A stretch of DNA of 64,000 nt from the NCBI GenBank assembly GCA_964584165.1, contig CAZOYW010000002.1, positions 35,488 to 99,487 of the forward strand, in the 5' to 3' direction. Below are positions 41,640 through 46,492 of this stretch, in pieces; the first letter of the stretch is position 1; each line of letters starts with the position of its first letter. The DNA comes from an uncultured bacterium (GTDB lineage Bacteria > Auribacterota > Erginobacteria > Erginobacterales > CAZKCI01). The notes under the pieces were generated by a model. The model did not search any database, was not told the origin of the DNA, and saw nothing but the letters and a program-made list of their open reading frames with translations. The position numbers were made by a program, and so were the translations under genes.

Positions 41640-41662
41640 AAAATTTTCCGGAGGAAAATTTT
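41640..41662 (+). promoter_or_regulatory. Perfect AT-rich hairpin enclosing the SD: aaaattttcc-GGA-ggaaaatttt, abutting the ATG at 41663
   Basis: Read directly. A 10-bp stem with a 3-nt loop; the GGAGG Shine-Dalgarno spans the loop and right arm. Confidence 0.75.
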
Positions 41663-42172
41663 ATGGGAATGGTGAACATCAACCGGCCGATCCACCTGGC
41701 GCTCCGGGACGGTTCCTACGAGAAGTTTCTCGGCCTCCTCAAGCCCTCGTTCGAGGGGCGCCCGCTCGCCTCGCGCAAGAAGATCGTCGGCGCCGCGGTC
41801 GAGAGCCTGGAGGGGGCGCACGCCGCCGCCTCCGGGGCCCTGCGCGGGGTCATGGGGAGCCAGCGGGAACGGGACTTCTGCAAATTCCTCCGGATGATCC
41901 TCGACTCCGCCCGGTCGGTCAAGTTTCTGGTTGAGCACGAGGAGATCCTGGAGCAGGACACCAGCTTCCTGAAGCGCTTCCTCTCCGGGTCGCCGCAGGC
42001 GGTGACCGACGCGCGGGCGATCCGCCGCCGGAAGGCGGAGGAGTTCCTGGAGGGGGTCAGGACCATGGCCCGGCTCGGCGAGAAGGAGTTTCAGAAGCTC
42101 CAGGCCGAGAACTTCCAGGCCTTGAACGAGGACGAGCGCCGGCGCTATCGGGCGATGCGGGCCAACCCATGA
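41663..42172 (+). CDS. Hypothetical protein (169 aa), first gene of the operon leading to the M16 peptidase
   Basis: ORF with the unusual SD hairpin. Its stop overlaps the next start (ATGA). Confidence 0.45.
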   Translation: MGMVNINRPIHLALRDGSYEKFLGLLKPSFEGRPLASRKKIVGAAVESLEGAHAAASGALRGVMGSQRERDFCKFLRMILDSARSVKFLVEHEEILEQDTSFLKRFLSGSPQAVTDARAIRRRKAEEFLEGVRTMARLGEKEFQKLQAENFQALNEDERRRYRAMRANP

Positions 42173-42558
42173 GCGAAGACGGAGAATACCTGCAATCCCT
42201 TTCCGCCCTGGCGCGCCGGGACGGCCGCTACGACGTCGAGGCCTATCTCTTCGTCCAGCGCGCCCTGGCCGCGCTCCTGGAGAAGATCGGCCGCCGCCGC
42301 CACGTCTCGGGGGGCGAGCTTTTGGAGGGGATCCGCGAACTCGCCCTGCGGGAATACGGCCCCCTCTCCCGCGATGTCCTCGCCCACTGGGGGGTGAGGG
42401 CCTGCCCGGACTTCGGGGAGATCGTTTTCGCAATGGTGGAGGCCGGCCTTCTCGCCAAGACCGAAGAGGACCGCCGGGAGGATTTCCAGGGCGGCTACGA
42501 TTTCGGGGAAGCCTTCGAGGCCCCTTTCCTTCCCCCCTCCCCGGGCGGGAAGCCATGA
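42169..42558 (+). CDS. Small conserved hypothetical protein (129 aa) co-translated with the M16 peptidase
   Basis: ATGA coupling at both ends. Acidic C-terminus. I half-recall a small family of this kind that often sits upstream of M16 peptidases, but I cannot name it with confidence. Confidence 0.4.
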   Translation: MSEDGEYLQSLSALARRDGRYDVEAYLFVQRALAALLEKIGRRRHVSGGELLEGIRELALREYGPLSRDVLAHWGVRACPDFGEIVFAMVEAGLLAKTEEDRREDFQGGYDFGEAFEAPFLPPSPGGKP

Positions 42559-45170
42559 TCGCCGCCCGCCTTTCTTTTCTCCTCGGCCTCGCCCTCGTCT
42601 GCCCGGGCGGGGAGGCCGCGGGGGAGATCGCCTTCACCGCTCCCCCCGCCGCCCGCACCGTCCTCCCCAACGGCCTGACCGTGGTCGTCCGGGAGGACCG
42701 CGACCTGCCGGTCGCGGCCGTCCAGCTCTGGGTGCGGGCGGGATCCGTCTTCGAGGGCGTTCGGCTCGGCGCCGGCCTCTCCCACCTCGTCGAGCACCTC
42801 GCCTTCAAGGGAACGGCGGGGGCGGGCCAGGAGGAGATTCCCCGGAAGATCCAGGCCCTGGGGGGAGAGATCAACGCCTTCACCTCCCTCGACCACACCG
42901 TCTTCGACCTGAAGGTCCCCTCCGCCCGCCTCCGCCCCGCCCTCGCCCTCCTCCGGGACCTCGTTCTCGCGGTCGCCTTCGAGCCCGATGAGATCGCCCG
43001 GGAGAAGGAGGTCGTCCTCAAGGAGATGAACATGAACCGGGACGACCCGGACCGGCGGGTCTCCGAGCTTTTCTGGGCGACCGCTTTCCAGGTCCACCCC
43101 TACCGCTTCCCGGTCATCGGTTATCCCCGGATCCTGGAGGACCTCTCCGTCGAGGACGTGGTCTCCTACTACCGGACCTGGTACGTCCCGAACAACATGG
43201 TCCTCGCCCTCTCCGGCGATCTCTCCGCCGCCGAGGCCTTCGCCCTGGCGGAGGAGACCTTCCGGAACGACCCGCGGAAGCCCTACCCGCTCGCCTCCCT
43301 CCCCGAGGAGCCCCCCCAGCTCGTCGCCCGGGAGGCCGAGGAGACGATGGCGGTGGCCTCCGCCCGCCTCCAAGTCGGCTTCCACACCGTCAGCCTCTAC
43401 CACCCCGATCTCTACCCGCTGGACGTCCTGGCCATCCTGCTCGGGCAGGGGCGCTCCTCGATCCTCTGGCAGGAGCTTCGGGAGAAGCGGGAACTCGTCC
43501 ACGCGATCAGCGCCTCCTCCTACACGCCCTCCTATCCCGGGGTTTTCGTCGTTTCCGTCGAGCTCGATGACTCCGATCTCCCCGCGGCCCGCGCGGCGAT
43601 CGGGGAGATCCTGGGGCGGGTACGGGCGGGGGAGCTTCTGACCGCGGAAGGGTTGGAGAAGGCTCGCCGCCAGGTCCTGAGCGACTACGTGGGCTCGCTC
43701 CAGACCGTGGAGGGCGAGGCCCACGATCTCGGCTCCAGCCTCCTCCTCACCGGCTCTCCGGATTTCTCCCGGAGATACGTGGAGGGGATCGGCGCCGTCA
43801 CCCTTCCGGACCTCGCCCGGGTGGCGGCCCGCTATCTCGTCGACGACAACATGACCACGGCGGTCGTCCGCCCCCGTCCGGCCGCCCCGCCCAAGGCGGC
43901 GGCGACGCCGGCCGGGAAGGGGGAGATCCTCAAGCGGGTCCTCCCCAACGGGCTCACGGTCCTCGTCCGGTCCGAGCCCCGCCTCCCCCTGGTCTCGCTG
44001 CGCATCTTCTTCCGGGGCGGCGTGCTGGCCGAGACCGAGAAAAACAACGGGCTCGGCAACCTGCTCGCCCGGATGCTCCTCCAGGGGACGGCCGGACGAA
44101 GCGCCCGCCGGATCGCCGACGAGGTCGAGGGGAAGGGGGGATCGATCGGGTCCTACTCCGGGCACAACAGCTTCGGGGTTTCGGTCTCCGTCCTCTCCGA
44201 CGAGCTCAATCCGGGGCTGGACCTCCTGGCCGACGTTTGCCTTCACCCGACCTTCCCCCCCGAGGAGATCGAGAAGGAGCGGGCGGTGATCCTCTCCGAG
44301 ATCGCCGCGGAGCGCGACCAGCCGGAGACGATCGCCGGCCTCCTCGCCCGGGAGGCGATCTTCGGCTCCCATCCCTACCGCTACCGGGCGGTGGGGACGG
44401 AGGCGGCGGTCTTGCGGCTCGGGCGGGCCGACCTGGAGGAATGGCACCGGAGGTACTGCTGCGGCCGTAACGGGGTCCTCGCCGTCTTCGGCGACGTCGA
44501 TCCGGAGCGGGCCTTCGCCCTGGCGGAGAAGGCCTTCGCCGGTCTCCCGGCGGGGGAGGAGGCCGCCCTGGCCGGGCGCTTCCCCCGTTCCGTCCCGCTC
44601 TCGTCGCGCCGGGTCGAGTCCAAGCCGGGAGCGGCCCAGGCCGTCCTGATGGTCGGCTTTCCGGGCGTGGACGTGAAGAGCCCCGACCGCTATCCCCTGG
44701 AGGTCTTGAGCGGGATCTTCACGGGACTCGGCTCTACCCTCTTCATGCGGGTGCGGGACGAGCTGGGGCTCGCCTACTACCTGGGGGCGCACGAGATCCT
44801 CGGCCTCGACCCCGGAGCCTACATCTTCTACGCCGGGACGGTCCCGGGGAAGACCGAGACGGCGCTCGGGGAGATCCGCTCCGAGATCCGCCGGGTGCAG
44901 GAGGGCGGGGTCACGGAGGAAGAGCTCAAGCGCAACCAGGACCGCCTGATCGGCCGCCGCGAATTCAGCCTCCAGTCGAACGACGGTCTCGCCTTCGCCG
45001 CCGCCCTGGACGAGCTCTACGGCCTGGGCTACGACAACTACCGGGAGTACGAGGGGGAGATCAGGAAGGTCAACGCGGCCGATCTTCAGCGCGTGGCCCG
45101 GGAGTACCTGCGCTCCGACCGCTGCGCCGTGGTGATCGTGCAGCCGGATGAAAAAACAAGTGATCAGTAA
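42555..45170 (+). CDS. Fused tandem M16-family zinc peptidase (insulinase/PqqL-like, ~870 aa)
   Basis: Signal peptide. GLSHLVEHLAFKGT is the inverted HxxEH zinc motif in the first half. The second half is an inactive-type M16 repeat (NLLARMLLQGTAGRSA). Confidence 0.8.
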   Translation: MIAARLSFLLGLALVCPGGEAAGEIAFTAPPAARTVLPNGLTVVVREDRDLPVAAVQLWVRAGSVFEGVRLGAGLSHLVEHLAFKGTAGAGQEEIPRKIQALGGEINAFTSLDHTVFDLKVPSARLRPALALLRDLVLAVAFEPDEIAREKEVVLKEMNMNRDDPDRRVSELFWATAFQVHPYRFPVIGYPRILEDLSVEDVVSYYRTWYVPNNMVLALSGDLSAAEAFALAEETFRNDPRKPYPLASLPEEPPQLVAREAEETMAVASARLQVGFHTVSLYHPDLYPLDVLAILLGQGRSSILWQELREKRELVHAISASSYTPSYPGVFVVSVELDDSDLPAARAAIGEILGRVRAGELLTAEGLEKARRQVLSDYVGSLQTVEGEAHDLGSSLLLTGSPDFSRRYVEGIGAVTLPDLARVAARYLVDDNMTTAVVRPRPAAPPKAAATPAGKGEILKRVLPNGLTVLVRSEPRLPLVSLRIFFRGGVLAETEKNNGLGNLLARMLLQGTAGRSARRIADEVEGKGGSIGSYSGHNSFGVSVSVLSDELNPGLDLLADVCLHPTFPPEEIEKERAVILSEIAAERDQPETIAGLLAREAIFGSHPYRYRAVGTEAAVLRLGRADLEEWHRRYCCGRNGVLAVFGDVDPERAFALAEKAFAGLPAGEEAALAGRFPRSVPLSSRRVESKPGAAQAVLMVGFPGVDVKSPDRYPLEVLSGIFTGLGSTLFMRVRDELGLAYYLGAHEILGLDPGAYIFYAGTVPGKTETALGEIRSEIRRVQEGGVTEEELKRNQDRLIGRREFSLQSNDGLAFAAALDELYGLGYDNYREYEGEIRKVNAADLQRVAREYLRSDRCAVVIVQPDEKTSDQ

Positions 45171-45828: not shown

Positions 45829-46458
45829 AGGAACTGGGAAATCAAATCGCGCAGCCGCTCCTGCGCGGCCTGCGCGGCCCCCTTTCAGACCGGGCAGATG
45901 TACCACTGCCTCCTCCACTTCGGCGGCGAAGAGCCCTCCCGCGCCGACTACTGCGAGCGCTGCTTCCGGGAGAAGAGCCTCGAGGCCGCCCGCTCCGGCC
46001 CGGAAAAGGCCTACTGGCGCTCCTCCTTCAAGCGGCTCTACACCCCCGTCGAGGAGCGGGAGGCGATCCGCAAGGACCTGGCCCAGCGCCTGCTCGAGAA
46101 GCACGTCGGCTCCGAGCGGCCGGAGCACGTCAACCTCTGCTACATCCTGGCCCTGCTCCAGGAGCGGTCCCGGATCCTAATCCCCCGCACCCGGAGCCGG
46201 GACGAGGGCGGCTCCTGGATCACGGTCTACGAGCACGCCCGGACCGGGGACACCTTCCTGATCCGCGACCCCGGCCTCTCGCTCTCCGCGGCCGAGGCCG
46301 TCGAACAGCAGATCAAGGCGTTGATCGAAGCCGAGAAGGCCGCCGACGCCGCGTCCGCTCCGGAGGAGGGGGAAGGGCCGGCCCCCGAGTCTTCCGCGGA
46401 GGGGAAAGGCGCCTCCTCCCCCGCCTCCGCCGACGGATCGCCCCGGGCCTTAAACTAG
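45826..46458 (+). CDS. Hypothetical protein with an N-terminal CxxC...CxxC zinc-ribbon (TTG start)
   Basis: SCAACAAPF ... YCERCF. The acidic C-terminal tail is low complexity. Confidence 0.45.
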
Positions 46459-46467
46459 ACCAACCTT

Positions 46468-46488
46468 AAATTTTGCGGAGCAAAATAT
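46468..46488 (+). promoter_or_regulatory. Third AT-rich hairpin around GGAG: aaattttgc-GGA-gcaaaat, 5 nt upstream of the gmd ATG
   Basis: Read directly. Confidence 0.6.
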
Positions 46489-46492
46489 AAAA

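Follow-up and report, generated by a model that had tools for sequence, protein, structure and literature searches.

We analysed a 64-kb stretch of DNA (the window) from an uncultured bacterium of the Auribacterota (contig CAZOYW010000002.1), in which three genes start within or just behind an A/T-rich hairpin. The hairpin is a real, conserved and apparently undescribed control element. It belongs to a family that is characterised by a stem of 11-13 bp of nearly pure A/T, a C-G closing pair and a GNA triloop, mostly GGA, and this family is specific to a lineage, the Candidatus Auribacterota-like members of the Planctomycetes-Verrucomicrobia-Chlamydiae (PVC) group. Most likely, with a probability that we put at about 45%, it is a transcribed leader hairpin in the translation-initiation region that gates the access of the ribosome. 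The related contigs and loci that were compared with the window are labelled with L-numbers.

The window has a GC content of 0.62-0.73 per 2 kb. The hairpins (Table 1) lie in a group of genes for which the Pfam search gave a 169-aa and a 129-aa protein (both without a family) and an M16 peptidase, followed by a DUF1844 protein, a 210-aa zinc-ribbon protein, the GDP-mannose 4,6-dehydratase (encoded by gmd) and an epimerase. Site 1 is set in a divergent promoter region. Here, the final 3 bases of the stem are the ATG of the 169-aa open reading frame (ORF; 41663-42172), which opens the operon of the 169-aa, 129-aa and M16 peptidase genes. At site 2, the TTG start codon (45826) of the zinc-ribbon protein is found inside the 3' arm. 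Site 3 occupies the 34-nt gap between the stop codon of the zinc-ribbon gene (46458) and the ATG of gmd (46493). Its stem consists either of 7 perfect pairs, ending 6 nt before the ATG, or of 11 pairs with one A/A mismatch, ending 2 nt before it. In the paired state of sites 1 and 2, the loop exposes GGA only, and the next two G residues, the spacer and the start codon are paired. The GG of the Shine-Dalgarno (SD) sequence pairs with CC, and the AAAA of the spacer with the UUUU of the 5' arm. A preliminary description of this DNA had reported the three sequences, all of which were confirmed at their positions. It had given the stems as 7-11 bp and the gap at site 3 as 5 nt; the structure holds, whereas the palindromes are longer (13, 13 and 11 bp) and the 7-bp stem ends at the distance named above. 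Its proposal of a loop that presents the SD does not agree with the pairing, since GGA alone is exposed and the following GG and the spacer are paired.

Table 1. Hairpins at the three gene starts, features accompanying site 2 and hairpins at zinc-ribbon orthologues (positions refer to the window)
Feature	Position	Strand	Sequence and structure
Site 1 hairpin	41637-41665	+	CATAAAATTTTCC-GGA-GGAAAATTTTATG, perfect 13-3-13, loop 41650-41652
Site 2 hairpin	45801-45829	+	TCAAAATATTTCC-GGA-GGGAATATTTTGA, 13-3-13 with one U.G, loop 45814-45816
Site 3 hairpin	46466-46490	+	TTAAATTTTGC-GGA-GCAAAATATAA, 11-3-11 with one A/A mismatch, loop 46477-46479
Sigma-70-like promoter	45715-45742	+	TTGACG-16-GATAAT, 10/12 match
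Upstream ORF	45785-45829	+	14 codons, own AGGAGA at 45773-45778
Zinc-ribbon orthologue hairpin			CATAATATTTTC-GAA-GAAAATATTATG
Zinc-ribbon orthologue hairpin			TTTTATTTTTCC-GAA-GGAAAAATAAAA
Zinc-ribbon orthologue hairpin			TATTATTTTTTC-GAA-GAAAAAATAATA
Zinc-ribbon orthologue hairpin			TATATTTTTTC-AAG-GAAAAAATATA
Zinc-ribbon orthologue hairpin			variant with AAA loop

The hairpins had been taken for a dedicated element, and a selected structure at translation starts, as opposed to a coincidence, is supported by the excess of the pattern, by the predicted folds and by compensatory changes. The pattern W6-N-CCGGAGG-N-W6 with at most 3 mismatches was matched 12 times against 0.71 expected. RNA folding of 51-nt windows gave -16.4 kcal/mol for site 1 (z -3.6) and -17.6 kcal/mol for site 2 (z -3.9); the fold of site 3 is weak in this strain (-4.7 kcal/mol, z -0.3). 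When the cores of 31-35 nt were folded as DNA, z-scores of -6.5, -4.8 and -2.6 were obtained for sites 1, 2 and 3, respectively. A covariance model of the family, with sites 1-3 included in its training set, matched the window at these three sites alone at E <= 10. With the Rfam models, a search over 40-52 kb at E <= 1 left the sites unmatched, and in the window and 142 kb of related loci nothing reached the gathering score for the hairpins. The element was not described in the literature on SD hairpins in PVC/Verrucomicrobia and Auribacterota or on start-codon inverted repeats.

Orthologues were retrieved by protein homology alone, and the hairpins were not used in the selection. The reading covered four syntenic contigs and 68 metagenome loci. 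L003 and L005 encode an identical 169-aa protein; their intergenic DNA is strongly diverged, yet all three hairpins are retained, and at site 1 the same sequence is found in both despite differing flanks. Just two differences fall within the hairpins, and both result in better pairing. At site 2 of the diverged strain, G is changed to A, which converts the U.G to a U-A pair, and at site 3 a change of A to T mends the A/A mismatch to a perfect 11-3-11. The stem of site 2 and the 11 bp of site 3 are also both perfect in L131, as they are in L005.

The hairpin of the site 1 gene is kept in 6 of 9 lineages with the arms AAAATTTTCC, ATTTTTTTC and TATTATTTTAC, and the orthologous hairpins of L125, L126, L141, L143 and L192 have different arms. 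For the zinc-ribbon protein, 38 database relatives were found, one of which (71% identity) is labelled Candidatus Aureabacteria, which is the Candidatus Auribacterota of the PVC group. Relatives of at least about 46% identity have a triloop hairpin at the start of this gene, with arms that are different yet mutually complementary (Table 1). Of 12 lineages, about 7 have the hairpin, with at least 6 distinct arm pairs among them, and other complementary arms occur in L128, L129/L130, L135/L139/L140, L141, L180 and L192. It is not present where the gene became coupled to an upstream ORF and is reduced to 6 bp in L125; among the homologues below about 45% identity none had it. At gmd, 6 of 8 lineages keep the hairpin, and a G-C pair is swapped for A-U in L126/L132. 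Compensatory changes at orthologous loci, which the preliminary description had proposed as a test, were therefore found at the zinc-ribbon gene, the site 1 gene and gmd, and to judge from these comparisons the pairing is evidently under selection. Two loci show a more complex arrangement. Upstream of gmd in L129 (2334-2376), two overlapping hairpins have one arm in common, and in L101 (213-260) a single 5' arm is able to pair with either of two GGAGGGAAAATATA copies. The arms in L101 and L129 would permit mutually exclusive structures, which suggests a possible switch.

For the whole family, 43 non-identical copies were aligned on the loop. The closing pair was C-G in 43 of 43, the G-C pairs of the stem (1-2 in all) were limited to the SD end, and A/T was found elsewhere. 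Position 1 of the loop was G in 38 copies and position 3 was A in 42, with GGA in about 30, GAA in about 10 and GCA in 3; at orthologous sites, AAG, AAA and AGA loops were also seen. The T residues at -6 to -3 and the A residues at +5 to +8 are near-invariant. Pair 2, beside the closure, takes all four Watson-Crick forms (CG, UA, GC and AU). The pairing statistics of this alignment are partly circular, since the sequences were picked as hairpins. Less biased tests are the orthologue sets fetched by homology and a census seeded on TTNC-RRA-GNAA only. Among the 57 distinct matches of this census in DNA of the lineage, the free pair 2 was Watson-Crick in 53, and pairs 5-11 were so in 75-91%. The pairing stopped sharply at 11-12 bp, and the conserved flanks were not complementary. 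As a control, 15 matches at loci of distant homologues paired at about the chance level.

The hairpins were dense in close relatives (23 in 126 kb) as compared to distant ones (3 in 299 kb), and the matches of the covariance model were confined to close relatives among the related loci scanned. In species-representative genomes, the palindrome followed by ATG recurs, among the matches listed, several times in each of the metagenome-assembled genomes (MAGs) JAZDIV01, CAWGIE01, CAKZYZ01 and AnMBR.bin469 (PVC group/uncultured bacterium). Also among the matches listed are one copy in an Omnitrophota MAG and, at one shared orthologous gene, a single copy per genome in three deltaproteobacterial/Desulfobacterales MAGs. 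Further copies were found in fetched 8-kb pieces, independently of the ascertainment by pattern. In L010, L046 and L105 (deltaproteobacterial MAGs, one of them Desulfobacterales) an identical AATTTTTCC-GGA-GGAAAAATT abuts the ATG of a gene whose product begins with MATGIKDKVA…. Start-abutting hairpins similar to the family occur sporadically beyond the PVC lineage. The genes that bear the hairpin in relatives (dnaX-like, ERCC4-like, rpsP and DUF1844) have no shared function, and we estimate that the element is reused at about 5-10% of the gene starts across the lineage.

The position of the hairpin with respect to the gene was then compared. In about 40 of the 57 census matches, the start codon of an ORF of at least 60 aa is within -4 to +2 nt of the 3' end of the stem, always on the strand with the purine loop. 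In close relatives, adjacency to a start was observed 15 times with the purine-loop orientation and 2 times with the opposite one. At several copies in tight intercistronic gaps, the stop codon of the upstream gene is located in or beside the 5' arm. Since GAA, AAG and AAA loops occur, the SD is frequent in the element but not obligatory. Enclosure of the SD, which had been regarded as the defining trait, is contradicted by these loops and by GCA, by copies that precede a separate SD and by copies at tRNA and signal recognition particle (SRP) RNA genes. The preliminary description saw the element correctly and read its function too narrowly. An unusual arrangement is found in L127 (9282-9310, minus strand), where an Amidohydro_2 gene starts in a 12-bp A/T hairpin with the ATG as triloop (TAAATTTTTTTC-ATG-GAAAAAAATTTA). 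Its 3' arm belongs to the coding sequence, and there is no SD.

The transcription of the hairpin can be followed best at site 2. A scan for promoter motifs found 2 in 5.3 kb against 0.2 expected. The one at site 2 (Table 1) is about 60 nt upstream of the hairpin, with an implied 5' untranslated region of about 75 nt. Both hexamers are retained in L005 and L125, while the spacer and the untranslated region differ. Since this conserved promoter is upstream of it, the whole site 2 hairpin should be transcribed. The upstream ORF (uORF) at this site runs across the hairpin and ends in a TGA that shares bases with the TTG start codon (TTGA). L005 and L131 likewise have an in-frame uORF, but none was detected at the scanned distant site 2 orthologues L129/L130, L135 and L180. 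In L128 there is only a non-homologous 12-codon GTG ORF, and in L125 the uORF is absent by reading of the alignment. Since it is missing from distant orthologues, the uORF is local to the close strains. We consider it a candidate opener of the site 2 hairpin by translational coupling. Opening by a uORF as a general mechanism was rejected, because an in-frame crossing uORF is limited to site 2 and its closest strains.

The structure, its compensatory conservation, its fixed position and orientation and the location of site 2 downstream of a conserved promoter are directly supported. If the hairpin acts in the RNA, it would fold the A/U-rich landing site of the ribosome, the GG of the SD and often the start codon until it is opened. 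Inside operons, the opener would be the ribosome that completes the upstream ORF, as at site 3, with the uORF of site 2 and at the ffh-rpsP junction. At first genes such as site 1, the 30S subunit itself would probably be the opener. The GGA in the loop could serve as a toehold for the anti-SD, and pairing with GGAGG would strip the stem of its only G-C pairs, leaving an all-A-U helix that might be unzipped by S1 and the ribosome. The net outcome would be a self-contained and context-insulated start with an output that is throttled or depends on coupling. The location of the purine loop on the coding strand, the orientation bias of the start adjacency and the fact that the sole G-C pairs are those that the anti-SD would displace support such a gate.

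Several observations weigh against it. About 3 G.U stand against at least 4 A.C/C.A internal mismatches, which is no excess of G.U in these small numbers, and a selected RNA helix is normally richer in G.U. GAG and AGG loops, which would suit the SD equally well, were never seen, and the C-GNA-G signature is the rule for stable DNA mini-hairpins. By E. coli rules, a stem of -11 kcal/mol over the start codon would be strongly inhibitory, and yet the hairpin is found on dnaX- and rpsP-type genes of relatives. Five copies are followed by a separate AGGAGG 3-6 nt further on, with the start codon 16-18 nt away, so that the hairpin does not occlude that SD; this is the case, for instance, at the ffh-rpsP junction of L127 and at the DUF1844 gene of L141/L143. 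In L086, the CAWGIE01 MAG, one copy is at the 5' end of tRNA-Ser (hairpin 4858-4886, gene 4769-4858, 2 nt off) and another one at the 5' end of the SRP RNA (hairpin 4004-4032, gene 3721-4005, 0-2 nt off), both on the minus strand, where translation is irrelevant. The SRP RNA gene of this MAG is large, and its tRNA-Ser is followed by a different A/T hairpin with a pyrimidine loop, an apparent terminator. Finally, three copies are located just past the stop codon of a convergent gene, beside a canonical GC-rich terminator.

The chief competitor is an element that acts in the DNA, a hairpin or cruciform embedded in the promoter that would switch it by supercoil-driven extrusion. We regard this as possible, if doubtful. 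The 5' arm would then represent a -10-like hexamer (TAAAAT, TATAAT or TATTAT) at 6-7 nt from the purine loop, the step from C to GNA the pyrimidine(-1)/purine(+1) start, and the 3' arm a minimal leader of 12-15 nt. DNA mini-hairpins of extraordinary stability follow the rule C-GNA-G, while their RNA counterparts are much weaker (PMC13037366); in the promoters of phage N4, loops of this type bring about extrusion at physiological supercoiling (PMC13037366, PMC4496689). The C-G closure in 43 of 43 copies and the GNA loops fit this rule, and the lack of a preference for G.U over A.C points in the same direction. A DNA element would also account for the copies at tRNA-Ser and SRP RNA, which need promoters and not ribosomes, and it would do away with the puzzle of why housekeeping starts should be covered by a very stable RNA stem. 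As read from the alignment, about 38 of the 43 5' arms hold TAnnnT ending 4-7 nt before the loop, and in L141 the TATAAT of a TTGCAT-17-TATAAT lies within the arm. However, TAnnnT is almost forced by the composition of the arm, a T followed by an A-run and a T-run. Hexamers resembling the -35 region at 16-18 bp from the arm hexamer were not enriched as compared to shifted controls, and a sigma-70 -35/-10 promoter with its -10 in the 5' arm was rejected on this ground. In addition, a conserved promoter of its own lies upstream of site 2 and is retained in L125, where most of the 5' arm is lost. Many copies lie in narrow gaps between cistrons, and their arm contains the stop codon of the preceding gene. 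To our knowledge, complementarity of the leader to the -10 region has no role for a cellular RNA polymerase. The hairpin promoter of N4 is located at a fixed distance before the transcription start (PMC13037366, PMC4496689). Its GRA loop is on the template strand with the start about 11 nt downstream, a geometry that the family does not share. The GNA here is on the coding strand, the reverse of N4, and an N4-type enzyme would therefore transcribe away from the gene. Rather unlikely in our view is a general start module for mRNA, tRNA and SRP RNA, in which the lineage-wide C-GNA-G A/T hairpin would act as a cruciform promoter element for the cellular RNA polymerase or, as RNA, would dock on the 30S platform together with or instead of the SD helix. 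The operator of a lineage-specific RNA-binding protein (a repressor, an activator or a CsrA-like protein), with the C-GNA-G triloop on a U4/A4 stem as target, is unlikely. Such a protein could explain why the conservation exceeds the needs of pairing (T at -6 to -3, A at +5 to +8, the closure and A at loop position 3) and why the stem has a defined length and conserved, non-complementary flanks. CsrA/RsmA sites likewise are short, SD-overlapping hairpins with GGA exposed at the loop. The family differs by its C-G-closed triloop, where CsrA sites have 4-6-nt A(N)GGA loops, by the long A/U stem, by a single site per gene and by the GAA, GCA and AAA loops, which lack the required GGA (GGA in about 30 of 43). 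No protein emerged as a candidate, and the genes served are functionally unrelated. A tblastn search with E. coli CsrA gave no match in the 64 kb and the related fragments, a result that says nothing on the rest of the genome.

With slightly less probability again, the hairpin could be a processing signal, either a 5'-terminal stabiliser against 5'-end-dependent RNases or a cleavage signal for the trimming of leaders. The 3' end of the stem coincides with start codons (-4 to +2) and with the 5' ends of tRNA-Ser and SRP RNA, and likely promoters were read from the alignment about 12-20 nt upstream of the hairpin at site 1 of L125 and site 2 of L129/L130. But cleavage at the base would cut off the start codon at sites 1 and 2, which have it within the stem, and there are just two examples with stable RNAs. 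We know of no nuclease with such a specificity. Least probable of all is an RNA thermometer, as suggested earlier, in which the stem would melt in the range of about 25 to 42 C and thereby release the SD and the start codon. The A/U-rich stem does cover part of the SD and the start codon, as in the single hairpins around the ribosome-binding site of the fourU, ROSE and cyanobacterial hsp17 thermometers, and the weaker copies (site 3 and the all-A/U stems of relatives, at -4 to -7 kcal/mol and 37 C) are in the meltable range, site 3 being predicted at -4.4 kcal/mol. The isolated stems of sites 1 and 2 (13 bp) were predicted by ViennaRNA at -14.8 and -15.4 kcal/mol at 25 C, -11.3 and -11.8 at 37 C and -9.8 and -10.2 at 42 C, so both are kept over this range. 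Even at 60 C the hairpin is still the minimum-energy structure of the predicted 51-nt local fold (-5.7 and -5.4 kcal/mol). Known RNA thermometers depend on mismatches and bulges, whereas sites 1 and 2 have no destabilising mismatch apart from one U.G, and the U4 pairs with the A4 of the spacer and not, as in fourU, with the SD (AGGA). The genes downstream are of a housekeeping type and not of a heat-shock, cold-shock or virulence type, and the hairpin also precedes tRNA and SRP RNA. A site for a dimeric DNA-binding regulator, the 10-3-10 operator of the preliminary description, is very unlikely as well. The dyad symmetry is near-perfect, and the half-sites AATTTTC/GAAAATT are those of the Firmicute CodY box AATTTTCWGAAAATT. 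However, orthologues swap the half-site and stay complementary, for example from AAAATTTTCC to ATTTTTTTC or TATTATTTTAC, and pair 2, which looks like a position without protein contact, is Watson-Crick in 53 of 57 matches with four pair types, a constraint that the binding of a dimer to duplex DNA would not impose. On the coding strand, the centre is purine-rich in all cases, and the start adjacency (15 against 2) makes the element orientation-dependent. The spacing is 3-5 nt here and 1 nt in the CodY box, and CodY is, as far as we know, confined to Firmicutes, a different phylum. Equally improbable is a weak or bidirectional intrinsic terminator of the upstream gene that overlaps the next ribosome-binding site. 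It would be consistent with the layout of A-tract, short hairpin and T-tract, with similar A/T hairpins after tRNA genes in relatives (L086 4743-4769 and L122 277-299) and with the three copies after the stop codon of a convergent gene. Site 1, however, is between divergent genes, and no gene precedes it whose transcription could be ended there. The stem has just 1-2 G-C pairs, the T-run is within it and not outside, and none of sites 1-3 was called by a terminator scan. L101 and L012 have a canonical GC-rich terminator 10 nt away, and the start adjacency is strongly biased in orientation.

Hairpins that occlude start sites are a known class, but a stereotyped lineage-wide module was not found in the literature searched. 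In the MS2 replicase operator, in the IF3-L35-L20 coupling and in synthetic toehold switches, a stem likewise takes up the start codon together with the spacer and part of the SD. Coupling hairpins can also be opened by an upstream ribosome, as would apply to the uORF of site 2, to site 3 and to the ffh-rpsP junction. In contrast to these, we observe one stereotyped and reused module that is perfect and not marginally stable and that also occurs beside stable-RNA genes; it carries no trans-RNA trigger. The same cap with flanking inverted repeats is known from d(C-GNA-G) mini-hairpins, from the promoters of the N4 virion RNA polymerase and from RSF1010 ssiA (CCGAAGG). The stems of the family are A/T-rich with 11-13 bp and are located on cellular genes at ribosome-binding sites, whereas those of the known examples are GC-rich with 5-7 bp. 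In E. coli, cruciform-capable inverted repeats are non-randomly placed at starts and stops, and the small region immediately ahead of start codons is depleted of them (Miura et al. 2018, PMC6060812). The hairpins of the family concentrate exactly in that region.

Other repeats and structures were noted in the window. A possible fourth member at 51083-51115 on the minus strand, TTTCC-GAA-GGATATTTTATATG (given also as TTTCC-GAA-GGATATTTTAT-ATG, with the Amidohydro_2 ATG at 51087), was rejected. Only 7 of 11 positions pair, the covariance model did not match it at E <= 10, and the orthologues in L125 and L128 are without a hairpin. It has the geometry of the family and is at best a decayed or incipient relative. 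At 50216-50276, a near-perfect 29-3-29 palindrome (…CCCGGTTTATTCATGAAAACC-GTT-GGTTTTTATGAATAAACCGGG…) is located upstream of a minus-strand MCM/AAA ATPase gene. Palindromes with a TCATGAAAA…TTTTCATGA-like core are found in L033 at about 7470-7510 (a PVC-group MAG) and in L128 at 1136-1186 (a syntenic relative). The palindrome at 50216-50276 thus seems to be another conserved inverted repeat, distinct from the start hairpins, and may be an operator. Perfect long palindromes are present at 40301-40342 (19-4-19) and 53698-53746 (23-3-23). The latter is between convergent genes, has A/T tracts around a GC core and looks like a bidirectional terminator. All three palindromes differ in kind from the start hairpins, and those at 40301-40342 and 53698-53746 show the terminator form in this genome, unlike the start hairpins. 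An A/T-rich region with overlapping imperfect inverted repeats (60939-60992), upstream of an ORF starting at 61008, is outside the hairpin family. A thiamine pyrophosphate riboswitch (Rfam RF00059, 58.8 bits, above the gathering score) was found at 40018-40125 on the minus strand, ahead of an AIRS-domain gene of that strand (38840-39922).

Between gmd and the next epimerase gene, an ORF of 93 aa (47656-47937) encodes a protein of PF05635 (23S rRNA intervening-sequence protein). It is flanked by heptamer arrays at 47484-47547 (AGAAGTG, about 8 units) and 47877-47921 (CTTCTCA in the complement register, about 6 units). This cassette is absent from L005 and is therefore an insertion polymorphism. 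Intergenic tandem arrays with units of 7-10 nt were also found at 38775-38866, 45209-45256, 793-914, 6556-6582, 22788-22812, 32700-32745, 33879-33918, 35053-35103, 52720-52778 and 62772-62800. Their units are TCACTGA/CTGATCA, ACGTAACCTT, CGCGGATTA, CGAATTACG, GTCCATACC, TCCTATAGG, ATGGACGGA and GTGTCAG. Arrays of the GATCACTGATTAC type are located upstream of genes in the PVC MAG loci L009 and L034. The tandem arrays of the window are reminiscent of the TAACTGA heptamer arrays that were reported for the Beggiatoaceae (PMC4679880).

If the hairpin acts in the RNA, it would be a compact, portable and maintained gate of ribosome access on about 5-10% of the genes of an uncultured phylum and a natural counterpart of engineered insulated ribosome-binding sites and toehold designs. 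In addition, it would run counter to the rule, established across the E. coli genome, that stable inverted repeats are kept from the bases before the start codon (PMC6060812). If it acts in the DNA, it would be the first cellular C-GNA-G mini-hairpin as a widespread gene-start element, so far seen in phage N4 promoters and priming signals. A general start module, if true, would be a mode of start-site specification that has not been described in model bacteria. In practical terms, the hairpin is a precise marker of start codons for gene callers in this lineage, and it offers a clean experimental target of 25-29 nt that is easily mutated.

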